Source of the DNA: a virus
Direction: 5' to 3' (one strand)
IMG/VR virus record: IMGVR_UViG_3300032144_000009
Coordinates: 1-63,344 of that record
Length of the DNA: 63,344 nucleotides
Part shown: piece by piece, positions 11,864-34,511 of the stretch
Layout of the letters: each line of letters opens with the position of its first letter
Numbering within the stretch: the first letter of the stretch is position 1
Notes under the pieces: model-generated
Seen by the model: the letters and a program-made list of their open reading frames with translations, nothing else
What the model was told of the DNA's origin: nothing
Database searches by the model: none
Made by a program: the position numbers and the translations under genes

Positions 11864-12112
11864 ATGGTCGAAACTCACAACCCAAGCCCTCAGCAAGTGT
11901 TCGACGATACTTACGTGTCGACCATGGAGATCTGCGAAGAAATGGGCGTCAACCGTGCAAGCGTGACGAACGCCATCAAACGGAAGTTTCTACCCGCTCC
12001 AATCGTGGTCAGCCACTCCCACATGCACCTCTGGGTTCGCAGGGAAATCCGACCTATCTTGGACGCGTGGAAACTGGTCCTCAAAGCGAGACAAGCCAAG
12101 GAAACTGCATGA
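11864..12112 (+). CDS. Small HTH DNA-binding protein (excisionase/MerR-like fold)
   Basis: YVSTMEICEEMGVNRASVTNAIKRKFLPAPIVV...HLWVRREI. The stop overlaps the primase ATG (ATGA). The start position is uncertain. Confidence 0.55.
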   Translation: MVETHNPSPQQVFDDTYVSTMEICEEMGVNRASVTNAIKRKFLPAPIVVSHSHMHLWVRREIRPILDAWKLVLKARQAKETA

Positions 12113-14535
12113 CAGACCCGGTGAGCGCGTGGATGCGCTTGCCTGAGGAGCTGCGTTGGGCGCGACAGTGGGTTGTCGCGGGTCCTGACAAGGCACCTTA
12201 CACGGCAAACGCGAATGGGCAGTTGTACCGCGCAAGCGTCACAGACCCGTCAACATGGTTGGACTTTGATACCGCGTGTGCGTATGCGGTTGCGAACGGG
12301 GCAGGCATCGGGTACGTGTTGCACGAACTCGACCCGTACACCTGTATCGACTTGGATGTCAAGGACGCACAGAATGCGCCCGACAAACCCGAGCTCTGGA
12401 CTACCCCGGAACAACTCAACAAATACTGGTCAATCTGCCAGTCGTTGAACTCCTACACGGAGACCTCGCGTTCGGGCAAGGGCTTGCACGTGTGGGTGAG
12501 GGGCAACATCGGTGCAGGTCGCAGACGCGGTGGCATTGAAATCTACTCACGCGAGCGGTTCATCATCTGCACGGGTGAAGTCGTTATCAACGTTCCCATC
12601 GCTGACCGGCAGGACGCCCTTCAGTTGTTCGTTGATGAGCTCACAGCGCTCAACCGCAGGGAAGGGATCTCCGAAGGCGTTGTTGCTGATCAAGAAGACG
12701 TGCACGACGATGCGGAGATTATCGAACGTGCGCTGAACGCTGCCAACGGCGCCAAGTTCCATGCGCTGTGCTGCGCTACCTCGTGTGAAGGCGAGGGTGA
12801 GGACAAGGTGCACGGGTCTTACACGGAGCTGGGCTACACGTCGCAATCCGAAGCTGACTTGGCGCTCATGTCCATGTTCACCTTCTACTCGCGTTCGAAC
12901 GAGCAATGCAAACGCTTGTTCCGCATGACAGGCTTGGGCAAGCGTGCCAAGGCCACACGTGACGACAAGTATCTCGACCGCACCATCCAAGGCAGGCGCA
13001 AGTTCCAATTCAACGAAGAGCAAGCGGCCAAGCACGGTGAGAACCAAGCGGCCGCAATCCTTGCCAGCGCGCGTGGGCTGGTTGACAAGCTCAACGCTCA
13101 GGGCGCTGCTGCACTGGGCATCGCAAGGGTGGAAGAGCCCGCTCCAGGCCCGCAGGGGCCGACCAGTGCGGCGATGGTTGCTTCCATGGTGCCCAAGCGG
13201 GACACGGAAGATAGCTCGCTGGAATGGCCCCCTGGGTTCATGGGCGCCATTGCGAACTTTATCTACTCCTCGGCGCCGCGCCCTGTCAAAGAAGTCGCAA
13301 TCGTTGCAGCGCTTGGACTGGTTGCTGGCATCTGCGGTCGCACGTGGCTGTTACCACAATCAGGGCTCAACCTGTATGTGATCCTTGTTGCACGGTCAGC
13401 GATCGGCAAGGAAGCAATGCACAGCGGGATTTCCATCCTGTTGTCCAAGCTCATGCAGACGTTCCCGCAGGCTTCGCAGTTCGTTGACTTTGCGGACTTT
13501 GCGTCTGGCCCAGCGTTGCAGAAGGCGGTCGCTGCCAACCCGTGCTTCGTCAACGTTGCAGGTGAGTTCGGTAAGAAGCTTTCGCGCCTGGCTAAGGAGA
13601 ACGGTGAGGGGCCCATGCAGCAGCTCCGCACGGTCATGACGAACCTGTACCAGAAGAGCGGGCCCACCAGCATCGTTGGCGGTATCACCTACTCGAACAA
13701 GGACGGGAACATTGCGTCCGTGTCTGGCGTGTCGTACAGCATGATCGGTGAGACCACACCCAGCACGCTCTACGAGTCGCTCACCGAGTCCATGATGTCG
13801 GACGGCTTCCTTTCCCGCTTCAACATCATTGAATACAAGGGCAAGCGCCCACCGCAGAACTACAATCAGCAGCTTGAGCCTGACTCCGCGCTTGTGGACC
13901 ACTTGCGGGGCCTAGTTGCATACAGCGCGGACTTGCAGAATCGCCCCGCAGCCCGCATACAGATTCAGCGCGACACCGAAGCGGGCGACATGCTGCACGC
14001 GTTCGACGTGGAATGCGATGGGGAGATCAACAGCACGGACGACGAAGGTGTGCGTCAGATGTGGAACCGTGCCCACCTGAAGGTCTTGCGCATCGCGGGC
14101 CTGCTTGCTGTTGCAGACAACCCTGCCAACCCGTGGATGACACGCGAATACGTCACGTGGGCGCTCTCCGTTGTGCGCAAGGACATACAGATGATGCAGA
14201 CACGCATGGGTGAAGGTGACGTCGGTGTGGACGACGACTCGCGTGAGAAGAAGATCATGAACGTGATCAAGGACTACCTTCAGTTCGGTGCAGGCCCTGG
14301 GTACAACATCAACCCCTCGTTGCAGTTCGCTGGCATCGTGCCACGCAAGCTGCTGCAGATGCGTGTGTCGCGCCTCACCGCGTTCTACTCACACAAGCTG
14401 GGTGCCAACGTTGCCCTTGACGGTACCATCCGCAACCTGATTGACACAGGGCGTCTTGTCGAGATGGACAAGACGAAGCTGATCACGGACTACGGCGCCC
14501 ACGGCAAGTGCTACCGCGTTTTGGACCTCACTTAA
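12109..14535 (+). CDS. AEP-family primase-polymerase fused to a DUF3987-like NTPase/helicase domain
   Basis: 808 aa. CIDLDVKD, GKGLHVWVRG and GIEIYSRERF are prim-pol motifs. LNLYVILVARSAIGKEA is P-loop-like. Confidence 0.8.
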   Translation: MTDPVSAWMRLPEELRWARQWVVAGPDKAPYTANANGQLYRASVTDPSTWLDFDTACAYAVANGAGIGYVLHELDPYTCIDLDVKDAQNAPDKPELWTTPEQLNKYWSICQSLNSYTETSRSGKGLHVWVRGNIGAGRRRGGIEIYSRERFIICTGEVVINVPIADRQDALQLFVDELTALNRREGISEGVVADQEDVHDDAEIIERALNAANGAKFHALCCATSCEGEGEDKVHGSYTELGYTSQSEADLALMSMFTFYSRSNEQCKRLFRMTGLGKRAKATRDDKYLDRTIQGRRKFQFNEEQAAKHGENQAAAILASARGLVDKLNAQGAAALGIARVEEPAPGPQGPTSAAMVASMVPKRDTEDSSLEWPPGFMGAIANFIYSSAPRPVKEVAIVAALGLVAGICGRTWLLPQSGLNLYVILVARSAIGKEAMHSGISILLSKLMQTFPQASQFVDFADFASGPALQKAVAANPCFVNVAGEFGKKLSRLAKENGEGPMQQLRTVMTNLYQKSGPTSIVGGITYSNKDGNIASVSGVSYSMIGETTPSTLYESLTESMMSDGFLSRFNIIEYKGKRPPQNYNQQLEPDSALVDHLRGLVAYSADLQNRPAARIQIQRDTEAGDMLHAFDVECDGEINSTDDEGVRQMWNRAHLKVLRIAGLLAVADNPANPWMTREYVTWALSVVRKDIQMMQTRMGEGDVGVDDDSREKKIMNVIKDYLQFGAGPGYNINPSLQFAGIVPRKLLQMRVSRLTAFYSHKLGANVALDGTIRNLIDTGRLVEMDKTKLITDYGAHGKCYRVLDLT

Positions 14536-16104: not shown

Positions 16105-16608
16105 ATGCGTGTCACCCTGCTAGCTGACGCCTCCTTCTGCCCCAACACCAGAATCGCTGGGTACGGGTTCTGGATTGCGGCTGCACGGGGCAAGCTACCC
16201 GGCCACGGTGTCTTCAAGACGCTGTGCCGGGACAACGTGGTCGCAGAGATGCGCGCCATCGTGTACGCGATGCGTGCGGGTATGCAACACGGTGTCATCC
16301 AGAAGCATGATGAGCTGCTGATTCAAGTAGACTGCTTAGCAGCCATATCCGCGTTCGACGGTTCTCGAACTGAGCTCAACGAAGAGGAGAAAGCAGTCCA
16401 CAGATACTTCAAGGACCTCAAGAGGCAAGGCAGTTTTGAAATCGAGTGGCGGCATGTGAAGGGCCACTCCTCAACCACAGACGCACGGTCCCTGTCGAAC
16501 AACTCATGCGACAGACGTGCACGACGCGAAATGCGCAAAGCGCGTGACGCATTCCTACTCAAGGAGAACGAAGATGCAAAACAAGCACATCCTGACGCTT
16601 CTGCGTGA
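16105..16608 (+). CDS. RNase H (RNase HI-like)
   Basis: The D-E-D-H-D pattern is present: LLADASF, VVAEMRA, IQVDCLA, VKGH, SCDRRA. Confidence 0.75.
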   Translation: MRVTLLADASFCPNTRIAGYGFWIAAARGKLPGHGVFKTLCRDNVVAEMRAIVYAMRAGMQHGVIQKHDELLIQVDCLAAISAFDGSRTELNEEEKAVHRYFKDLKRQGSFEIEWRHVKGHSSTTDARSLSNNSCDRRARREMRKARDAFLLKENEDAKQAHPDASA

Positions 16609-19339: not shown

Positions 19340-20059
19340 ATGATTCAGTTCTCTACTGCGTCCCAGGAGTCGGTCAGCAACGGTATCAAGTGCCTTGTGT
19401 ACGCCGATTCCGGCATCGGAAAGACAGTGCTTTGCGCAACGCTTCCGAAGCCCGTGCTGATCAGCGCCGAGTCCGGTGCTCTGTCCTTGCGTCGACCGAA
19501 CCTCGAGCGTCTGTTCGGTGTGGGCAACCCGTCGATCACCTATGACATGCCCATCATCAAGATCGGCAGCGTGGAAGACCTCAAGGCTGCCTACGAGTGG
19601 TGCTACACCGCGCAAGCGGCTGCCTTCGAAAGCGTGGCGCTTGACAGCATCAGCGAAATGGCGGAAGTCATTCTCAACAACGCGAAGCGGCAAGTGAAGG
19701 ACCCGCGCCAGGCCTACGGTGAGCTCATCGAGAAGATGGAGACCACTGTGCGCGCGTTCCGCGACATCCCGAACAAGCATGTGCTCGTCGTGGCGAAGCA
19801 GGAGCCCACCAAGGATGAATTGACAGGTGTGGTCAAGTACGGACCGGCCATGCCTGGATCGAAGCTCGGGAACAAACTCCCGTACTTCTTCGACGAAGTG
19901 TTTCGCCTTGGGGTCAACAAGACGCCCCAAGGCGAGTCATATCGGTTCCTGCAAACGCAGCCCGATCTTCAGTTCGTGGCCAAGGATCGTTCAGGTGTCC
20001 TGGCTGCGATGGAACCCCCTCACCTGGCTCAACTGTTCAACAAAATTCTAGGAGTCTGA
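19340..20059 (+). CDS. Sak4-like RecA-fold ATPase (AAA_24 type, recombination)
   Basis: Walker A is VYADSGIGKTVL. It has the expected size and sits next to DUF669 and an exonuclease. Confidence 0.75.
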   Translation: MIQFSTASQESVSNGIKCLVYADSGIGKTVLCATLPKPVLISAESGALSLRRPNLERLFGVGNPSITYDMPIIKIGSVEDLKAAYEWCYTAQAAAFESVALDSISEMAEVILNNAKRQVKDPRQAYGELIEKMETTVRAFRDIPNKHVLVVAKQEPTKDELTGVVKYGPAMPGSKLGNKLPYFFDEVFRLGVNKTPQGESYRFLQTQPDLQFVAKDRSGVLAAMEPPHLAQLFNKILGV

Positions 20060-20063
20060 CCAC

Positions 20064-20903
20064 ATGGCACAACTCAATTTCGACGCTTCGCGCGTCGCTC
20101 CCGACCTTGGCATGGAGGTCTTGCCTCCGGCCTGGTACAACGTTGCGATGGACGAGTCGGAGCTCAAGCCGACGAAGGACAACGCGCAGACCGGCGGCAT
20201 GTACCTGAGCTGCCGTTTCAACATCCTCGATGGCGAGTACGCCGGCCGCAAGGTGTTCACCCGTCTGAACATCAAGAACGCCAACCCGGTCGCACAAGAG
20301 ATCGCGTACAAGCAACTCAGCGCCATCGCGCACGCTGTCGGCATCCTGCAAGTGGCCGACAGCCAACAGCTCCACAACATCCCGCTGAAGGTGAAGCTGA
20401 AGGTCCGCAAGGGCAACCAAGACCCGGCCAAGGGTGACACGTACGAGGACTCGAACGAGATCACCTCCTTCAAGAACATCAATGAGCCTACCCCCGGCGC
20501 CGGCGGTCCCGCCCTGGGCATCCCCGCAGGCTTCGGCGGTCCCGCAGCACAGCCCGTGCAGCCGCCTGCCGCGTTCGGTGGTACCCAGCAACCGACTCAG
20601 CAGTTTGCGCAGCCCCAGGCCGGCGCGCAGCCGCAGCAGCCCGTGCAACAGCAGCAACCCTGGCAACCCCCGCAGGGCGGTCAGCAACCCTGGGGTCAGC
20701 AGCAACCCGTGCAGCAACAGGTCCAGCAACCTGTCCAGCAGCCCGTGCAACAGCCGCAGTTCCAGCAGCAACCGCAGTTCCAGCAACAGCCGGTTCAGCA
20801 GCCGCAGTTCCAACAGCAGCAACAGCCGGTTCAACAACCCGTGCAGCAACAGCCGAACCCGGCCGCTACCGCGCAGGTCGCCACTCCCCCGTGGCAGCGC
20901 TGA
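20064..20903 (+). CDS. DUF669-type putative ssDNA-binding protein with a long P/Q/G-rich disordered tail
   Basis: The N-terminal ~135 aa match the DUF669 pattern (GGMYLSCRFNILDGEYAGRKVFTRLNIKN). The C-terminal ~140 aa are Q/P repeats (QQPVQQPVQQPQFQQQ...). Confidence 0.7.
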   Translation: MAQLNFDASRVAPDLGMEVLPPAWYNVAMDESELKPTKDNAQTGGMYLSCRFNILDGEYAGRKVFTRLNIKNANPVAQEIAYKQLSAIAHAVGILQVADSQQLHNIPLKVKLKVRKGNQDPAKGDTYEDSNEITSFKNINEPTPGAGGPALGIPAGFGGPAAQPVQPPAAFGGTQQPTQQFAQPQAGAQPQQPVQQQQPWQPPQGGQQPWGQQQPVQQQVQQPVQQPVQQPQFQQQPQFQQQPVQQPQFQQQQQPVQQPVQQQPNPAATAQVATPPWQR

Positions 20904-20966: not shown

Positions 20967-21983
20967 ATGCAAGTAATTTTGGCGCCAAAGACGGTGCTTG
21001 GTATCGATGCTGCTATCAAGGCGGATCAGGGCGGTGCATACCGCGTCAATCTTGGCAAGGTCATCCCGCACATGGATGACGCGTATCGGGGTCAAGACGA
21101 CGGATTCCGTGCTCACTTGGGTGCCAGCATCGTCGGGCAGGAATGTGCGAGAGCCATCTGGTACGGTTTCAGATGGACCGCGAAAGCTAACTTCGAGGGG
21201 CGCACGCTGCGCCTCTTCAATCGCGGGCACCTGGAAGAAGCACGCTTCATTGCGATGCTGCTCACCATCGGGGTGCAGGTCTACCAGCAAGACGACAAGG
21301 GTAAGCAGTACCGCATCTATCACGCTGGCGGGCACGTAGGCGGCGCAGGTGACGGCATCGCTATCGGTATCCCGGACGTACCTGTCGGCCTGGCGATCCT
21401 GCTCGAGTTCAAGACGCACAACGACGCCAGCTTCAAGAAACTGGCGGGCGACAACTGGAAAGATTACCTCAAGTACCTCGAGAACCCGAAGGCGTTCCGC
21501 AAGCCGGTTGAGTTCAGCGGTGAAGGTGTACGCGAAAGCAAGTTCGAGCATTACGTGCAGATGCAGATGTACATGCGCAAGATGGGTTTGCCTGCCGCAC
21601 TGTACCTCGCTGTCAACAAGAACGACGATTTGCTGTACGGCGAGATCGTGCAGCTCGACACCAGCGTGGCTGACCAGTTCCTGGATCGCGGTCAGAACAT
21701 CGTGTTCCTGAAAGGCCCACCCAAGAAGATCAACGAGTCGGGTTCGTTCTATAAGTGCAAATGGTGTGACCATCACGCTGTCTGTCACGACGGTGCGCAG
21801 CCTCTTGAGAACTGCCGTACCTGCAAGTTCAGTCAACCACAACTGGACGGCTCGTGGTTGTGTACCAGCGAAGACCGTCGCCAGCTGCTGCTCGACCCCA
21901 AGCGAAACCATCTCGGTGAAGACTTCGAGTTGACGAAAGAGCGCCAGCTGATTGGATGCGATCACTATTCGGTGCTCAAATGA
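20967..21983 (+). CDS. PD-(D/E)XK (Cas4/RecB-like) exonuclease with a C-terminal Cys cluster
   Basis: GDGIAIG ... LLEFKT core. C-terminal CKWCDHHAVC...CRTC. Confidence 0.7.
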   Translation: MQVILAPKTVLGIDAAIKADQGGAYRVNLGKVIPHMDDAYRGQDDGFRAHLGASIVGQECARAIWYGFRWTAKANFEGRTLRLFNRGHLEEARFIAMLLTIGVQVYQQDDKGKQYRIYHAGGHVGGAGDGIAIGIPDVPVGLAILLEFKTHNDASFKKLAGDNWKDYLKYLENPKAFRKPVEFSGEGVRESKFEHYVQMQMYMRKMGLPAALYLAVNKNDDLLYGEIVQLDTSVADQFLDRGQNIVFLKGPPKKINESGSFYKCKWCDHHAVCHDGAQPLENCRTCKFSQPQLDGSWLCTSEDRRQLLLDPKRNHLGEDFELTKERQLIGCDHYSVLK

Positions 21984-23737
21984 CCCGTCGCACGCCACGC
22001 CCTTATCAGATCCAGGCTGTCAACTCGATCTTCGATTACTTCGCTGTCAAGGACGGCAACCCGCTTGTCGCAATGCCGACGGGCACGGGTAAGTCAGTCG
22101 TCATCGCTGCGCTGCTCGAAGCGATCTACTGGCACTGGAAGAATCAACGCGTGATGATGCTCACGCACGTGAAGGAGCTCATCCAGCAGAACTATGAGAA
22201 GCTTCTTTCCCAGTGGCCCAGCGCGCCAGTCGGTATCAACAGTGCAGGGCTCGGCAAGCGGGACTTCCACCATCCGATTATCTTCGCGGGCATTGCGTCG
22301 GTCGCAAAGCATTGGGCCAAGTTTGGGCACATTGACCTCATCTTGATCGATGAGGCACATCTTGTTTCGCCCAGCGAAGAAACGATGTACCAGGCCTTCA
22401 TCAGCGGGCTGCGTAGCATCAACCCAAAGCTGAAGGTGATCGGGTTCACTGCCACCCCGTGGCGCCTCGGGCAAGGGCTGATCACCGATGCAGGGTTGTT
22501 CACGGACATCTGCTTTGACATCACTGGTGAAGACGCGTTCAACCGGCTCATTGCGGAAGGGTACCTCTCACCACTCATCCCCAAGCGCACGACCTACATG
22601 CTTGACACGGATGGTGTGCACATGCGTGGCGGTGAGTTCATTCCTGGCGAGCTGCAAAACGCAGTTGACAAGGACGAGATCACTGAGCAAGCGTGCCTCG
22701 AGGCGATCGACAAGGCGAACGACCGGAACCATTGGCTCGTCTTCTGTGCAGGGGTTGAGCACGCTATCCACACTGCACAGATGTTGAACCAGCTCGGTAT
22801 CAGTGCTATTGCCATCCACAGCGAGATGGGTGACAAGGAACGTGACGCTGCAATCCGCGACTGGAAGGCAGGCAAGTACGGTGCAGCGACGAACAACAAC
22901 GTACTGACCACAGGCCTTGACTTTCCTGCCATCGACCTTATCCTGATGCTGCGGCCCACGCAATCGACTGTCCTATGGGTGCAGATGCTCGGTCGGGGCA
23001 CGCGCCCCAGTCCTGAGACCGGTAAGCAGAACTGTCTGGTGCTTGACTTCGCGGGCAACACCAAGCGACTCGGGCAGGTCAACAACCCGCGCATCCCACG
23101 CAAGAAAGGCGAAGCTGCGGGCGACGCTCCGGTCAAGTGCTGCGAGGTATGTGATACGTGGCAGCATGCAGCGCGCACGCACTGTGAGAACTGCGGTGCA
23201 GAGTTCCCGCCGCCCATGACGAAACTGAAGGCACAAGCAAGCACTGATGCGCTGATCAGTGGCGAGCTACCTGTGACCGAGATGTTCAAGGTCGATTACC
23301 TGACATACGCTGAGCACATCAAGCAAGGTGTCCCGCCCATGCTCAAGGTGAGCTATTACTGTGGCTTGAAGTTGTTCACGCGGTACGTCTGTATCGAGCA
23401 CAACAACTTCGCACAGCGCAAGGCGAAGCAATGGTGGCGCGAGCACACAACACAACCGTTCCCCGCTAGCACTGCGGACGCGTTGGAGGTATGCGCCGAC
23501 TATCTTAAGCCCGCGACACACCTGAACGTTTGGACCAACAAGAAGCCTTATCCGGAGATCCTGGCTGAGTGCTTTGACGGGTCTGCGTTCGGCACCATTG
23601 CCCCCACGGACGAAGTGCCCACGATTGACGTGCAGGGCACGCGTGCAGCTATGTCCGTGGAGGAGACTGCGCGCAGGTCTGACCCTGCTAACAGGGTGCC
23701 AGGGTTCGACGACCTGGATGACGACATCCCCTTCTGA
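21980..23737 (+). CDS. SF2 DEAH-box DNA helicase with a Zn finger and an SSB-type acidic C-terminal tip
   Basis: MPTGTGKSV, LIDEAHLV, GFTATPWR and QMLGRGTR motifs, plus CCEVC...CENCG. It ends FDDLDDDIPF*. Confidence 0.85.
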   Translation: MTRRTPRPYQIQAVNSIFDYFAVKDGNPLVAMPTGTGKSVVIAALLEAIYWHWKNQRVMMLTHVKELIQQNYEKLLSQWPSAPVGINSAGLGKRDFHHPIIFAGIASVAKHWAKFGHIDLILIDEAHLVSPSEETMYQAFISGLRSINPKLKVIGFTATPWRLGQGLITDAGLFTDICFDITGEDAFNRLIAEGYLSPLIPKRTTYMLDTDGVHMRGGEFIPGELQNAVDKDEITEQACLEAIDKANDRNHWLVFCAGVEHAIHTAQMLNQLGISAIAIHSEMGDKERDAAIRDWKAGKYGAATNNNVLTTGLDFPAIDLILMLRPTQSTVLWVQMLGRGTRPSPETGKQNCLVLDFAGNTKRLGQVNNPRIPRKKGEAAGDAPVKCCEVCDTWQHAARTHCENCGAEFPPPMTKLKAQASTDALISGELPVTEMFKVDYLTYAEHIKQGVPPMLKVSYYCGLKLFTRYVCIEHNNFAQRKAKQWWREHTTQPFPASTADALEVCADYLKPATHLNVWTNKKPYPEILAECFDGSAFGTIAPTDEVPTIDVQGTRAAMSVEETARRSDPANRVPGFDDLDDDIPF

Positions 23738-23770: not shown

Positions 23771-23799
23771 TTGACACAGTTCAATCAGTCTCCTACAGT
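23771..23799 (+). promoter_or_regulatory. Sigma70-type promoter TTGACA-17-TACAGT
   Basis: Read directly. It lies 47 nt upstream of the ATG at 23846. Confidence 0.6.
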
Positions 23800-23845
23800 A
23801 CAACTCATGCGCAACACGGTGTTGCGCACAAACAGGAGAAACGAA

Positions 23846-24424
23846 ATGAACGCAGCTAACACCACCTTCAAGTCCTACAGCGAAAAGAGCAAGGCCAAGC
23901 GCGCTCTCAAGGGCAAGATGGAAGAGAACATGATCGAAGGTGTCCTGGTGCAGGTCGACGGCAAGTGGGGCTTCTACGTCAACGAAGACGGCACCCCCGC
24001 TGGCAGCAACAACGTGGACCAAGACGGTGTCGAAGTTACCGGCGAGCAAGTCTCCAACGAGACTTCTGTCGAAGATCAGAAGCAAGCAAGCGCATTCGGT
24101 GCTTTCGCACTGGGTCAGCTGACCGGCAACGGTGCAGCGCAAGTCCCGCAATCGGCCAAGACCGAAACCGTGGTTCGCGCTGAAGGTACCGGTCGCGGTA
24201 TCGAAAAGAACCGTCCGACGCAGAACGGTATCACCCGTCCGAGCATCGGTGGCCTCTGCCGCGCAGTGTGGGACGCTTGCGATGTGCTGCGCGCCAACGC
24301 ACCGGACAACGTGGTCACCGCCAAGATGGTCAAGGCCCACGCCGAGACCCAAGGCTGGAACCCGAACAACGCGTCCATCGAGTTCTACCAGTGGCGCAAG
24401 TTCAACGGCATCACCGGCAAGTAA
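23846..24424 (+). CDS. Hypothetical protein P1 with the C-terminal QNG..RP...G.C..W...WRKFNG domain (paralog of 26037-26564)
   Basis: AGGAGA RBS, 192 aa. The C-terminus is QNGITRPSIGGLCRAVWDACD...FYQWRKFNGITGK. Confidence 0.7.
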   Translation: MNAANTTFKSYSEKSKAKRALKGKMEENMIEGVLVQVDGKWGFYVNEDGTPAGSNNVDQDGVEVTGEQVSNETSVEDQKQASAFGAFALGQLTGNGAAQVPQSAKTETVVRAEGTGRGIEKNRPTQNGITRPSIGGLCRAVWDACDVLRANAPDNVVTAKMVKAHAETQGWNPNNASIEFYQWRKFNGITGK

Positions 24425-25950: not shown

Positions 25951-25959
25951 CTTTGCAGT

Positions 25960-25988
25960 TTGCAAGAACCCTCGTTTGCCGCTACAGT
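25960..25988 (+). promoter_or_regulatory. Sigma70-type promoter TTGCAA-17-TACAGT
   Basis: It has the same -10 hexamer and spacer length as the promoter at 23771. It lies 49 nt upstream of the ATG at 26037. Confidence 0.55.
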
Positions 25989-26036
25989 GCAATCACGTCA
26001 ATCAAGACGCTTTTATCAACCACAGGAGTGAACACC

Positions 26037-26564
26037 ATGTCCGAAAAGACCCCCGAACAAGTTGCTGCCGAAAAGGCTGCGAAGGCCGAAGCTGCTGCGG
26101 CTGCCAAGGCAGAGAAGAAGGCTGCGGCTGACGCTGCGAAGGCCGAGAAGGCGAAGGCTGCTGCTGACGCCAAGGAAGCCAAGGCCAAGGCTGCTGCTGA
26201 TGCGAAGGCTGCCAAGGAAGCCGATGCGAAGGCCAAGGCCGATGCGAAGGCCAAGGCCAAGGCCGATGCCGAAGCGGCCAAGCAAGCCTCGCGCATGCCC
26301 GAGCAGAACGGCGTCCGCCGTCCCAAGGCTGACGGTCTGTGCGGCAAGGCCTGGGCCATCTTCGATCAGGTGTCGCAGAAGCGCGGTGCCCCTGCGTCGA
26401 TCGGTGAGTCGATGGAGATCGCCAAGGCCCAGAACCTGAACGAGGCCAACGTGCGCGCCGAGTACGCCCGCTGGCGCAAGTTCAACGGCGTGGTCGGCCG
26501 CGTCGACAACCCGACGGCTGTGAAGCCTGTCGCGCCCGAAGCCAACGCCGGCGCCGCTGCGTAA
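26037..26564 (+). CDS. Hypothetical protein P3: Ala/Lys/Glu/Asp-rich helical region plus the P1-type C-terminal domain
   Basis: AGGAG RBS, 175 aa. AAEKAAKAEAAAAAKAEKKAAADAAKAEKAKAAADAKEAKAK... is followed by QNGVRRPKADGLCGKAWAIFD...YARWRKFNGVVGR. Confidence 0.7.
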   Translation: MSEKTPEQVAAEKAAKAEAAAAAKAEKKAAADAAKAEKAKAAADAKEAKAKAAADAKAAKEADAKAKADAKAKAKADAEAAKQASRMPEQNGVRRPKADGLCGKAWAIFDQVSQKRGAPASIGESMEIAKAQNLNEANVRAEYARWRKFNGVVGRVDNPTAVKPVAPEANAGAAA

Positions 26565-31265: not shown

Positions 31266-31519
31266 TGGCTACAGTCGAAGAACAACGCGCGCTGGCTGCG
31301 GAATTCGCGGTCCCGATTCTCACAGTCAAGAAGGTACTGGAAGAGAACGGCGACGACGTGGAAAAGGCACGCAAGCGCCTTACCGTGTTGACGACCCCCA
31401 TCGACACGCGCATCGCCAAGCTCGAGGCCGAGAACGAGCGTCTGCTCGCTGCCAACGTGACGCTCAACCAGCGCATCCAAGCGCTGGAAGACATGCACAA
31501 CCAAACTGACGTCGTGTAA
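31265..31519 (+). CDS. Small protein with an EF-Ts-N/UBA-like helix bundle plus a coiled coil
   Basis: LAAEFAVPILTVKKVLEENGDDVEKARKRL resembles the TS-N/UBA pattern (KKAL.E..GD.E.A...L). TAATG coupling on both sides. Confidence 0.45.
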   Translation: MATVEEQRALAAEFAVPILTVKKVLEENGDDVEKARKRLTVLTTPIDTRIAKLEAENERLLAANVTLNQRIQALEDMHNQTDVV

Positions 31520-32472
31520 TGCTCAAGGAACTCAAGTTCGTGATGGGCGCGGTAGCGAAGAAGGACTTCCTGCCAGCACTGACCCACTTCCGTATCGAGA
31601 ACGGTCGTGTGCGTGGGTTCAACGGTACGCTGGCGCTATGCTCGCCCATAGCGTTCGACATCGACTGCACTCCCAAAGCCGACTCCCTCGTGCGTGCGAT
31701 CCGGCAGTGCGACGATACGGTGGCCCTGTCCATGACGAAGGCAGGACGCCTGAGCGTGCGCAGCGGTGGCTTCAAGACCTTCATTGACTGCGTTGACACC
31801 GAGACACCACACGTCGAACCGACCGGTACCGACTTCCAGTTTGATGGTGAAGTGTTCCTGAAGGGCATCAAGGCCATTGCGCCCTTCATCGGTGACGACG
31901 CTTCGCGTCCGTGGTCGAATGGCATCCTGTTGCGTGGTCAAAGCATGTTCGCCACCAACAACGTGACGCTGATCGAATACTGGGCTGGTTCCAACTTCCC
32001 GATCGAATGCTGCCTGCCCTCGCCCGCAATCAAGGAAGTGCTGCGTATTGACGAAGCGCCGACACACGGGCAGGCGGATGACCACAGCCTCACGCTGCAC
32101 TTCTCTGATGGTCGCTGGGTGCGTACGAACCTGCTCAGTACCGAGTGGCCGGACTTGAGCAAGGTGTTTGACGTCGAGTCGAGCCCTACCGCCATCAACC
32201 CCGCTATCTTCGAAGGCCTGCGCAAAGTCAAACCCTTCGTGGACAAGATCGGTCGCATATACTTCCAGGAGGGTGCGTTGTGCACCTCGCTTGAAAAAAA
32301 CGAAGGTGCAACCGTGGAAGTCGATGGGTTCGCAGAAGAGGGGTCATACCAGATCGAGATGCTGGCGCTACTCGAAGGGGTAGCCGAGCGTATCGATTGG
32401 AAGCTTTATCCGAGGCCCGCCATGTTCTTCGGGGACCGTGTGCGAGGGGCAATCGTCGGTCTGAGAATGTAA
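31519..32472 (+). CDS. DNA polymerase sliding clamp (DnaN/beta-like)
   Basis: 317 aa. FLPALTHFRIENGRVRGFNGTLAL, GILLRGQSMFATNNVTLIEY and STEWPDLSKVF resemble beta-clamp repeats. It lies directly upstream of the polymerase. Confidence 0.6.
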   Translation: MLKELKFVMGAVAKKDFLPALTHFRIENGRVRGFNGTLALCSPIAFDIDCTPKADSLVRAIRQCDDTVALSMTKAGRLSVRSGGFKTFIDCVDTETPHVEPTGTDFQFDGEVFLKGIKAIAPFIGDDASRPWSNGILLRGQSMFATNNVTLIEYWAGSNFPIECCLPSPAIKEVLRIDEAPTHGQADDHSLTLHFSDGRWVRTNLLSTEWPDLSKVFDVESSPTAINPAIFEGLRKVKPFVDKIGRIYFQEGALCTSLEKNEGATVEVDGFAEEGSYQIEMLALLEGVAERIDWKLYPRPAMFFGDRVRGAIVGLRM

Positions 32473-34511
32473 TGGCTCGTGCAGATGCGCTAGGGATGTT
32501 CTGGTTCGACGAGCCAGTCGTCAAGCAGCTCAAGGAAAAGCCTCCGAAGCGCACACCGCCGGAGCGCACCTGGGAGCAGCCCGGATACTTGCCCGGCCTT
32601 GCTGAGGCCCGTGCTTTCAACAAGCACATCATGACCGACGAGGAGCTGCTGCAAGCGTGTGCGAACCGCGAGCGGCTGCGCTTCGACATCGAGTGTTATG
32701 AGAATTACTTCCTGATCGCTTTCATGTCCGAGCGTACCGGCTGGGTGTGGTTCTCAGAGATGCGCCCCGGTACCGAGCTCGACATCAACCGCGTCGGTTG
32801 GATCATGACCAACTTCACGGTCGTGGGGTTCTATAGCAAGAACTATGACATCCCGATGGCGTCCCTTGCGCTGGCGGGCAAGAACTGCGCGGAGCTCAAG
32901 CAGGCGACATACGACATCATCGTTGCCGAGCAGCGCCCGTCGGACGTGCTTCGTGTGCACAAGGTCAAGCAACTGAAGTGCGACCACGTTGATCTGATCG
33001 AGGTTGCGCCGCTCTATGCGTCGTTGAAGATCTACGGGGGTCGGTTGCACTGCAAGCGAATGCAAGACCTGCCCTTCCACCCTGACACATGGTTGTCGGA
33101 AGACCAGATTGCAATCGTTCGTTGGTACTGTATCAACGACTTGTCGAATACCGGGCTGCTAGACGAGGCGTTAGCCGAACCGCTGGCGTTGCGCACAGCA
33201 ATGAGCCAGCAGTATGACATGGACCTGCGTTCGCGCAGTGACGCGCAGATTGCTGAGCATGTGATTGCGTCGGAGATTCAAAAGCTGACCGGCTCGCGCG
33301 CAGCCCCTCCGAAGATTGCCCCAGGTACCGTCTACAAGTACAACGTCCCCCACTTCCTGCAATTCAAGAGTGACCTGCTCAACTGGGCGCTCAGCACTGT
33401 GTATCACGCGGACTTCGTTGTCGCCGAGCACGGTGCTGTCGGTATGCCCGAAGTGATTAAAGAGCTGTCGCTGAAGATGAACGGCAGTACGTACACGATG
33501 GGGATCGGCGGGCTGCACAGCACTGAGGAGCGTGCAGCGCACGTCAGTGACAGTCAGCACACGCTCTACGACATCGACGTTGAGTCGTACTACCCGCGGA
33601 TCATCTTGAACCTCGGGTTGTACCCGAAGCACCTGGGGCAAGCATTCCTCCGCGTGTTCAACGAGATCGTTGAGAAGCGTATCGCGGCCAAGAAGAACAT
33701 GCAGGCATGTGACGAAGCTGGCGATAAGAAGGGTCGAGCTCACTGGAAGGTCATTACCGAGTCGCTCAAGATTACGATCAATGGCGCCTACGGTAAGCTC
33801 GGGTCCATGTTCAGCGTCATCTATGCGCCCGACCTGTTGATCCAAGTGACGCTCACTGGTCAGTTGTCCCTGCTGATGCTTATCGAGCGTCTGGAGTTCG
33901 CAGGCATTCCGTGCGTGAGCGCCAATACGGATGGTGTGGTCATCAAGTGTCCGAATCACTTGCGTGACACCATGAACGCCATCGTTGCACAGTGGCAGCG
34001 CGACACTGGGTTCAAGACTGAAGAGACCCAGTACGACGCAATCTATTCCGCGAACGTCAACAACTACATCGCGGTCAAAGCGAAAGGCAAGGGTCTGAAG
34101 ACGAAGGGTGTGTACGGCAACCCGTGGTCGAAGAAAGACTTCCGGGAAATGCTGTCGAAGAACCCTGTGACCACAATCTGCATGGACGCGGTGGAGGCGC
34201 TGCTGCTGCACAAGAAGCCGCTCGCAGAAACGATCTGGGAATGCAAGGACATCACCAAGTTCATCGCGGTACGCAAGGTGAACGGGGGTGCAGTGCAAGC
34301 GGGCGAGTACCTCGGTGCGTCGATTCGTTGGTACTACTCAACCGAGGAACGCGGGGAGATGGTTGCAGCCAAGAGCGGGAACAAGGTGCCAATGTCTGAC
34401 GGTGCGAAACCGTGCATGACGCTACCGGAGGAGTTTCCGACTGACATCGACTACGACTGGTATCTGGCACGGTGTGTGCGTACCCTGAAGGAAATCGGAT
34501 ACTACGTCTGA
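32472..34511 (+). CDS. Family B DNA polymerase with 3'-5' exonuclease
   Basis: Exo motifs are FDIECYE, GFYSKNYDIPM and YCINDL. Pol motifs are DIDVESYYPRII, KITINGAYGKLG and SANTDGVVI. Confidence 0.85.
   Translation: MARADALGMFWFDEPVVKQLKEKPPKRTPPERTWEQPGYLPGLAEARAFNKHIMTDEELLQACANRERLRFDIECYENYFLIAFMSERTGWVWFSEMRPGTELDINRVGWIMTNFTVVGFYSKNYDIPMASLALAGKNCAELKQATYDIIVAEQRPSDVLRVHKVKQLKCDHVDLIEVAPLYASLKIYGGRLHCKRMQDLPFHPDTWLSEDQIAIVRWYCINDLSNTGLLDEALAEPLALRTAMSQQYDMDLRSRSDAQIAEHVIASEIQKLTGSRAAPPKIAPGTVYKYNVPHFLQFKSDLLNWALSTVYHADFVVAEHGAVGMPEVIKELSLKMNGSTYTMGIGGLHSTEERAAHVSDSQHTLYDIDVESYYPRIILNLGLYPKHLGQAFLRVFNEIVEKRIAAKKNMQACDEAGDKKGRAHWKVITESLKITINGAYGKLGSMFSVIYAPDLLIQVTLTGQLSLLMLIERLEFAGIPCVSANTDGVVIKCPNHLRDTMNAIVAQWQRDTGFKTEETQYDAIYSANVNNYIAVKAKGKGLKTKGVYGNPWSKKDFREMLSKNPVTTICMDAVEALLLHKKPLAETIWECKDITKFIAVRKVNGGAVQAGEYLGASIRWYYSTEERGEMVAAKSGNKVPMSDGAKPCMTLPEEFPTDIDYDWYLARCVRTLKEIGYYV

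Follow-up and report, generated by a model that had tools for sequence, protein, structure and literature searches.

A host-type SSB C-terminal tip on a RadD-like helicase of a Queuovirinae-like phage and its alternative carriers in related loci

INTRODUCTION

[quoted passage not shown] The full ending of E. coli SSB is ...PPMDFDDDIPF, and the chi subunit of the host clamp loader reads this tip. Bacterial SSB is an oligonucleotide/oligosaccharide-binding (OB)-fold tetramer presenting four tips, each at the extreme C-terminus behind a disordered, variable linker that drifts while the tip stays. Here we describe the same sequence, in the same extreme C-terminal position and behind a linker of the same kind, on a superfamily 2 (SF2) helicase that carries one tip per molecule and is encoded by a phage whose own SSB has no such tip. 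The phage is represented by the IMG/VR virus record IMGVR_UViG_3300032144_000009, positions 1 to 63,344; 'the window' hereafter means this whole stretch of 63,344 nucleotides. By a modest measure, we favour the view that the tip is a functional docking peptide of the SSB-C-terminus type, with host SSB-interacting proteins as its leading clients.

The peptide corresponding to the SSB C-terminus (SSB-Ct) has been given as M-D-F-D-D-D-I-P-F, and E. coli RNase HI is among the proteins with mapped SSB-Ct sites; E. coli RadD (YejH) binds SSB-Ct with a KD of ~5 µM, and the peptide alone stimulates the RadD ATPase (PMC10238739). RadD resembles the phage helicase over the full length of the fold (two RecA-like domains, a 4-Cys zinc ribbon and a C-terminal domain). 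It reads the SSB tip but itself ends in ...AHELRG, whereas the phage helicase carries the tip. In phage T7, the gp2.5 tail contacts a basic patch of the polymerase, and PDB entry 6P7E holds a peptide that mimics the gp4 tail (PMC12339929). T7 gp4 is likewise a phage helicase with an acidic, Phe-ended, SSB-like tail used for protein–protein coupling. However, gp4 is an SF4 hexameric helicase-primase and not an SF2 RadD-like protein; moreover, the T7 tail is a code of the phage's own, shared by gp4 and gp2.5 and bound by the phage polymerase, whereas the present tail follows the host SSB code and the phage SSB ends in a PPW motif. The analogy with T7 drawn in the initial annotation of this DNA therefore holds for the presence of an acidic, Phe-ended tail on a phage helicase but not for its sharing, since it is the host SSB, and not that of the phage, with which the tail is shared.

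Phage HK620 possesses the same module of Sak4-like protein and DUF669 SSB, together with a short C-terminal recruiting peptide: its DUF669 protein is a proven SSB that requires its six C-terminal residues, NDYPPF, for recruiting and stimulating Sak4 (PMC5928155). In HK620 the peptide sits on the SSB and serves Sak4, whereas in the window the SSB ending is of the PPW type and the acidic tip is separate, on the helicase. FDDDIPF tips have also been noted recently on SSB-like proteins of phages (bioRxiv 10.64898/2026.04.29.721553). The SSB tips and their clients are well known, as is the helicase tail of T7. In a limited library of literature, where absence is not proof, no publication came to light that describes a RadD-like helicase, clamp or adaptor with a host-type SSB tip, the alternation of the helicase tip with a small adaptor or clamp, or the separate PPW code of DUF669 SSBs. 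Public phage records already contain the sequences, under the sole annotation 'DNA helicase'.

RESULTS

The tip and its linker

The translation of the helicase gene (Table 1) has the C-terminal end ANRVPGFDDLDDDIPF before the stop, the C-terminal stretch of the protein being RVPGFDDLDDDIPF followed by TGA. The protein closes with GFDDLDDDIPF, so that the consensus DDDIPF stands at the extreme end and Phe is terminal. These six residues are identical to those that close SSB-Ct, and the acidic/hydrophobic pattern runs on upstream. The initial annotation had taken the protein for an SF2 helicase and its tail for the C-terminal tip sequence of bacterial SSB; the tail FDDLDDDIPF was confirmed, and the Pfam domains and the match to RadD agree with the first assignment. 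The carrier being an SF2 helicase and the SSB a separate DUF669 protein, the arrangement differs from that of a bacterial-type SSB, in which an OB-fold domain bears the tip.

Two AlphaFold2 runs with different alignments gave a confident body, with a predicted local distance difference test score (pLDDT) below 50 for the tail and of ~36–61 for the linker or extension. These models are consistent with a tail that acts as a free tether.

Among the open reading frames (ORFs) of at least 50 amino acids in all frames of the window, no other one has D[DE][DE][ILVM]PF at its end or elsewhere, and the tip is therefore unique in this DNA. On sequence grounds chance is excluded as its source, because a random protein with typical residue frequencies is estimated to end in DDDIPF with a probability of ~1e-8, because endings of the type [DE][DE][ILVM]P[FY] are rare (35 of 4606 ORFs of at least 60 amino acids in 81 related loci, 27 of them on helicases and seven on phage clamps) and because the tip is nearly invariant across 118 homologues.

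Table 1. Coordinates of the helicase, its tip, the replication and recombination genes of the window, and alternative tip carriers in related loci
Feature	Sequence	Position	Strand	Basis
RadD-like SF2 helicase gene, 585 aa	window	21980..23737	+	Pfam, phmmer, Foldseek, phrog_16
Globular helicase body, aa 1-553: two RecA-like domains, 4-Cys zinc ribbon, C-terminal domain	window	21980..23638	+	AlphaFold2 pLDDT mostly >90
Disordered hypervariable linker, ~aa 554-575	window	23639..23704	+	pLDDT 36-61, two AlphaFold2 runs
SSB-C-terminus-type tip FDDLDDDIPF	window	23705..23734	+	Translation; right-justified conservation; stop TGA 23735-23737
Primase/helicase (primase-linked replicative helicase), separate gene	window	12067-14535
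RNase H-like protein, candidate receptor	window	16105..16608	+	Pfam RNase_H E=3.5e-7
Sak4-like RecA-family annealing protein (AAA_24)	window	19340..20059	+	Pfam AAA_24 E=4e-24; syntenic 9g gene annotated Sak4-like
Phage SSB, DUF669 family; PPW motif 20886-20894	window	20064..20903	+	Pfam DUF669, PHROG SSB families, translation
Cas4/RecB-like exonuclease, adjoins and overlaps helicase	window	20967..21983	+	phrog_1990 E=4e-102; syntenic RecB/Cas4 exonuclease in PaMx25, 9g
Phage sliding-clamp-like processivity factor, without tip, ends FFGDRVRGAIVGLRM	window	31519..32472	+	phrog_947 E=2e-74
Family-B-like DNA polymerase, candidate receptor	window	32397..34511	+	phrog_1252 E=9e-204; weak Pfam DNA_pol_B match
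Clamp with tip	L036	4733-5887		phrog_947
Clamp with tip	L047	9614-10765		phrog_947
Clamp with tip	L050	3242-4399		phrog_947
Clamp with tip	L051	10618-11724		phrog_947
Clamp with tip	L055	3084-4247		phrog_947
Clamp with tip	L069	3447-4610		phrog_947
Clamp with tip	L077	6945-8012		phrog_947
Small 4-Cys carrier	L025	5201-5401
Small 4-Cys carrier	L034	6683-6874
Small 4-Cys carrier	L056	9576-9776
Small 4-Cys carrier	L061	8331-8522
Small 4-Cys carrier	L067	9592-9810
Small 4-Cys carrier	~17 more loci

Conservation among helicase homologues

In a collection of 5.8 billion proteins, the 120 best homologues (58–72% identity) include 118 that end in the tip, as (D/E)DIPF or a near variant. Counted from the C-terminus of the right-justified sequences (n=118), the residues are F in 118, P in 118, I in 117, D in 113, D in 114 and D in 90; position -7 is mostly hydrophobic (M, L or F) and position -8 mostly D, while positions -9 to -20 are variable, the commonest residue occurring in at most 38 of the 118. 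In tip-bearing homologues the extension past the globular body measures 3–86 amino acids (median 38) and is without sequence conservation. Among cultured phages, the PaMx25 helicase ends in YADLDDDIPF and gp11 of the E. coli phage 9g in PPDFDDDIPF, the last eight residues of which, DFDDDIPF, we take to be the very ending of E. coli SSB. The FDDDIPF it contains matches that of the E. coli SSB peptide given in an earlier study (PMC10238739). The initial annotation had named loss of the tip in close homologues beforehand as evidence against its reading; the tip is instead retained in the close set, in PaMx25 and 9g, and in a clade of only ~38% identity described below. As a separate observation, the linkers of some homologues (P0009, P0011, P0017, P0019, P0020, P0031 and P0121) contain an internal second tip-like copy, for example ...DPDADIPF...YDMDDDIPF or DEDLPF...DDDLPF, which suggests duplication of the motif.

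At greater distance the tip becomes scarce. Only about 22 of 150 cluster representatives at 42–57% identity have it, and most of the tip-less representatives stop directly past a conserved motif of the C-terminal domain; most of the distant homologues likewise stop at ~aa 533, directly past the conserved motif (VWTNKKPYPEILAECF in this helicase). The tip-bearing sequences fall approximately into one clade (145 with tip versus four without, at a distance cut of 0.45), plus scattered singletons.

The second clade, ~38% identical, was reached via viral-contig ORFs ending in DDEPPF and has relatives in Planctomycetota genome assemblies. Of 80 helicases in this Planctomycetota-associated clade, 78 have acidic-(I/V/P)-P-(F/W) at the C-terminus. 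A megablast search of one DDEPPF-helicase locus against phages gave no match, and the relatives that tblastn retrieved with a locus of this type were all below 43% identity. A scan of genomes for DDEIPF, aimed at the SSB tips of Planctomycetota, gave mostly alphaproteobacterial SSBs among the matches listed.

Alternative carriers of the tip

Carriers were tallied with a relaxed tip search in 77 related loci that have a complete helicase; the counts are not phylogenetically independent. The tip is borne by the helicase in 33 of the 77 loci, by a small 4-Cys protein encoded directly downstream of the helicase in 22 and by the clamp in seven; no carrier was seen in 13 loci, and two were uninformative. 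Two standard tips were found together in none of the 77 (L062 and L077 are borderline).

The small carrier, a protein of 63–90 amino acids with four cysteines (CxxC...C...RPP...GC), belongs to phrog_23504 and has (D/E)IPF at its C-terminus. Its gene lies directly 3′ of a tip-less helicase gene, frequently with an overlap, and the window contains no homologue of it. The tip-bearing clamps are phrog_947 proteins to which a linker and DDDIPF or DDEIPF are appended; all seven occur with a tip-less helicase, and the clamp gene is usually the next one after it. When the helicase tip is compared with the clamp tip alone, the difference is not significant (0/9 versus 7/29, p ~0.12, hypergeometric); the exclusivity of the carriers is clear only once the small protein is added. 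The pattern is consistent with one handle per module, placed on interchangeable carriers, and the tip accordingly looks like a portable docking module.

The tip is found on further proteins outside these loci. Among the matches listed, canonical OB-fold SSBs make up 34 of 119 viral-contig ORFs ending exactly in DDDIPF, the other carriers including many non-canonical SSB families, five RadD-like helicases, one clamp, one DnaB-like primase/helicase, four Pam3_Gp34-like proteins and several small families. Likewise among the matches listed, canonical SSBs account for 54 of 120 viral-contig ORFs ending in DDEPPF, where helicases with this ending are also present, and for 98 of 119 bacterial-genome ORFs ending in DDEIPF. 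The range of carriers thus appears to be much wider in phages than in cells, because the share of canonical SSBs is lower in the viral contigs than in the bacterial sample. Many unrelated small phage proteins ending exactly in DDDIPF are also present (L082-L199): helical-looking proteins of 73–75 amino acids (L090, L110, L118, L164), proteins of 80–100 amino acids with an 'FKNDKK..HPDY.G' motif, Pam3_Gp34-like proteins, and the DnaB-like helicase (L145), in which DDDIPF ends the protein together with an acidic run.

The helicase body and its candidate SSB-Ct pocket

Pfam identifies ResIII, DEAD and Helicase_C in the helicase, that is, an SF2 motor with two RecA-like domains. Its nearest solved relative by sequence is E. 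coli RadD (6jde; phmmer E=6e-54 over aa 5-391), to which it is ~34% identical over aligned columns. The NCBIfam RadD model NF053632 is the top match, but its 252.6 bits lie far under the cut-off of 720 bits, and by this measure the helicase is a distant phage branch and not a RadD orthologue. The AlphaFold2 model has a mean pLDDT of 90, and the top eight Foldseek matches in the PDB are all RadD chains (~600 columns, E ~1e-35), with a template-modelling score of only ~0.5 owing to differing domain orientations. The zinc-ribbon residues C388, C391, C402 and C405 are invariant in the helicase alignments A1 and A3. Because of the RadD sequence match, the RadD chains returned by Foldseek and the invariant cysteines, the protein is assigned as a distant, full-length phage-type RadD-like helicase. 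Several homologues (P0121, P0123, P0124, P0127, P0132, P0138, P0172 and others) are far longer (800–1583 amino acids) and align with the query over two or three stretches that lie apart, which is consistent with inteins or other insertions in the motor domains.

The RadD ancestry opens an alternative that was absent from the initial annotation, namely self-activation. The receptor would then be the helicase's own RadD-type pocket, and the phage would itself supply the activating peptide, either as a fusion with the helicase (in cis or from one molecule to another), on the small partner or on the clamp; a clamp-borne tip would also tether the helicase to clamp-loaded DNA. We consider this unlikely, though a serious competitor. 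The first RecA-like domain of RadD is the binding site of the SSB tip, and binding raises the ATPase activity of RadD; the phage helicase is a full-length RadD homologue; the hydrophobic residues of the pocket are kept and, together with K/R152 (which aligns with RadD R145) and R/K57, conserved throughout the phage family; every alternative carrier is encoded at or next to the helicase gene; and E. coli RadD itself lacks such a tail. However, among the pocket residues Arg21, Arg49 and Arg145 of RadD, K152 aligns with the last only, the equivalents of R21 and R49 (A22 and N55/H52 here) being not conserved and variable across the family. The two AlphaFold2 runs, which modelled the monomer and give per-residue confidence only, left the tip disordered and not docked. 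Moreover, the charge of the pocket rim is equal whether the tip is on the helicase, the small protein, the clamp or nowhere, so that tip and rim do not co-vary. When tip-bearing and tip-less helicases were compared position by position, the differences were scattered and confounded by phylogeny, and the RadD-pocket positions were not enriched.

The phage SSB and its PPW tail

The DUF669 SSB of the window has a long, low-complexity tail rich in Q and P that ends in ...ATPPWQR and is devoid of an acidic DDDIPF tip. In 80 related viral loci, most DUF669 proteins close with PPW and a short run of variable residues, with or without a tip on the helicase, and the same tail is found in the DUF669 proteins of PaMx25 and 9g. 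In the Planctomycetota-associated loci, a DUF669 gene lies nearby in 69 of 80, with PPW in 60 of the 69. The host-SSB mimicry proposed in the initial annotation gains support from this different, conserved tail. The general pattern of the DUF669 tail is a Q/P/A-rich stretch, a conserved (T)PPW and then 1–10 variable residues (L003-L080; L081, 4936-5778; L521, 12962-13888; L320-L399), and the motif spans phages of Proteobacteria and Planctomycetota-associated elements. We had also considered that the acidic tip might alternate between the DUF669 SSB and the helicase, which was rejected, as DUF669 proteins have PPW-type tails in loci with a tip-bearing and with a tip-less helicase alike.

By analogy with HK620, PPW is probably a private recruitment code. 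The acidic tip is a second, separate code, because the phage SSB has a PPW tail and the tail of the HK620 SSB serves Sak4; these phages therefore carry two distinct C-terminal peptide codes, PPW on the SSB and the acidic tip apart from it.

The presence of a phage SSB with a tail of its own bears on an arrangement like that of T7, in which the acidic, Phe-ended tail would bind a basic patch on the phage family-B polymerase or on another phage replication protein, and would link the helicase (in other phages, the clamp) to the polymerase without the involvement of host proteins. There is precedent in T7, where the tails of gp4 and gp2.5 contact gp5 (PMC12339929). The present phage has genes of its own for a polymerase, a clamp, a primase, a ligase and RNase H, and a DnaB-like phage helicase with an acidic run and DDDIPF does exist in viral contigs. 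Nevertheless, such a coupling seems improbable: unlike in T7, the phage's own SSB does not share the tail; the tip reproduces the host-type consensus residue for residue and is not merely acidic and aromatic; and the helicase belongs to a recombination module, beside an exonuclease, and is not the primase-linked replicative helicase.

DISCUSSION

The features of the tip may be combined into the following mechanism. The docking peptide would consist of the last 8–10 residues, D-hydrophobic-D-D-D-I-P-F, with a free carboxylate, presented on a flexible linker of ~20–30 residues. How SSB-Ct is recognised is established in structural terms. As in bacterial SSB, the terminal Phe and its carboxylate would enter a hydrophobic pocket with a basic rim on the partner protein, and docking would physically couple the helicase to that partner. 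By analogy, we infer both the binding of the tip to an SSB-Ct pocket and the identity of the protein that bears it. Single-stranded DNA coated by the phage SSB would display no host-type tip, because the DUF669 protein ends in the private PPW motif; the recombination/replication module would display the tip on the helicase instead and, in relatives, would present the same handle on the small 4-Cys protein or on the sliding clamp. The candidate clients are the chi subunit of the clamp loader, PriA, RecQ/RecG, exonuclease I, RecO and RNase HI, which the phage machinery might recruit or divert.

Host SSB clients are the receptor that we favour, with a confidence that is close to even. This preference rests on the residue-for-residue agreement of the tip with the host-type consensus, on the lack of a tip on the phage SSB and on the presence of a phage clamp together with the finding that no clamp loader was recognised among the window ORFs scanned. 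Several observations nevertheless weigh against it. The agreement with the SSB tip of the phage's own host is assumed from the sequences of relatives. The carrier is always the helicase or its neighbour, which the helicase itself as receptor would explain equally well. To our knowledge, chi is largely confined to Proteobacteria and would thus not be a client in the Planctomycetota-associated clade. Finally, the 13 loci without a tip on any gene in view suggest that the handle may be dispensable in some lineages.

A different use of the same peptide would be as a decoy or for self-regulation. The tail might soak up host SSB-interacting proteins, thereby disarming repair nucleases or the triggers of defence, or it might fold back as a DNA mimic onto the DNA-binding groove of the helicase, a mode proposed for SSB tails and the DNA-binding sites of the SSBs themselves. 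Exonuclease I and the triggering of a defence system have been linked to a phage SSB-like protein that ends in an FDDDIPF tip (bioRxiv 10.64898/2026.04.29.721553). A decoy would, however, need abundance, and a helicase is unlikely to be a bulk competitor for the tetrameric host SSB. With regard to fold-back, none is present in the AlphaFold2 runs, and a tip on a clamp or small protein does not fit auto-inhibition of the helicase groove. Altogether we regard this use as very improbable.

Returning to host SSB-interacting proteins as the clients, it is tempting to speculate that phages have moved the host SSB handle to a helicase, a zinc-ribbon-like adaptor or a clamp, thus hijacking selected host proteins of this group, and that this constitutes a general modular strategy; we put this forward tentatively and would sooner doubt it than assert it. 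As an example, the host clamp loader, reached via chi, might load the phage clamp at recombination intermediates. Were this reading correct, the host-type tip placed off the SSB would represent a natural experiment in which the hub function is separated from single-stranded DNA binding, and it could reveal the host factors that such phages depend on or neutralise. The findings also bear on the open question of the role of RadD-type helicases and their control by the SSB tip. The hypotheses are directly testable in cultured phages, namely 9g (E. coli; gp11) and PaMx25 or NP1 (P. aeruginosa). For annotation, we suggest the simple rule that proteins with a C-terminal acidic-IPF tip be read as replisome components plugging into SSB-Ct pockets.

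GENOMIC CONTEXT

The phage is Queuovirinae-like and possesses the module Sak4 / DUF669 SSB / Cas4-like exonuclease / helicase. Its nearest cultured relatives are the Pseudomonas phages NP1 and PaMx25 (Queuovirinae, Nipunavirus; 63% amino-acid identity), Xanthomonas phage DoCa3 and Variovorax phage VPv62, and its gene order agrees with those of PaMx25 and E. coli phage 9g. The helicase gene begins within the stop of the Cas4-like exonuclease gene upstream of it, the two overlapping as ATGA, and the ligase gene also lies upstream of the helicase. The window further encodes ThyX, a UvrD-like helicase and a 7-deazaguanine pathway (QueC, QueE and a TGT-like enzyme).

Beyond the helicase gene, a promoter-like site (TTGACA, 17 nucleotides, TACAGT) occupies positions 23771-23799. 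On its 3′ side, at 23808-23828, lies a perfect palindrome of 21 bp, TGCGCAACACGGTGTTGCGCA, which is unique in the window and may be an operator, being situated just upstream of the next gene (ATG at 23846). This gene (23846-24424) and its paralogue at 25953-26564 share matches to phrog_21588, 18634, 11298 and 17772, and the two flank a DUF2786/DUF7168 gene just downstream of the helicase.

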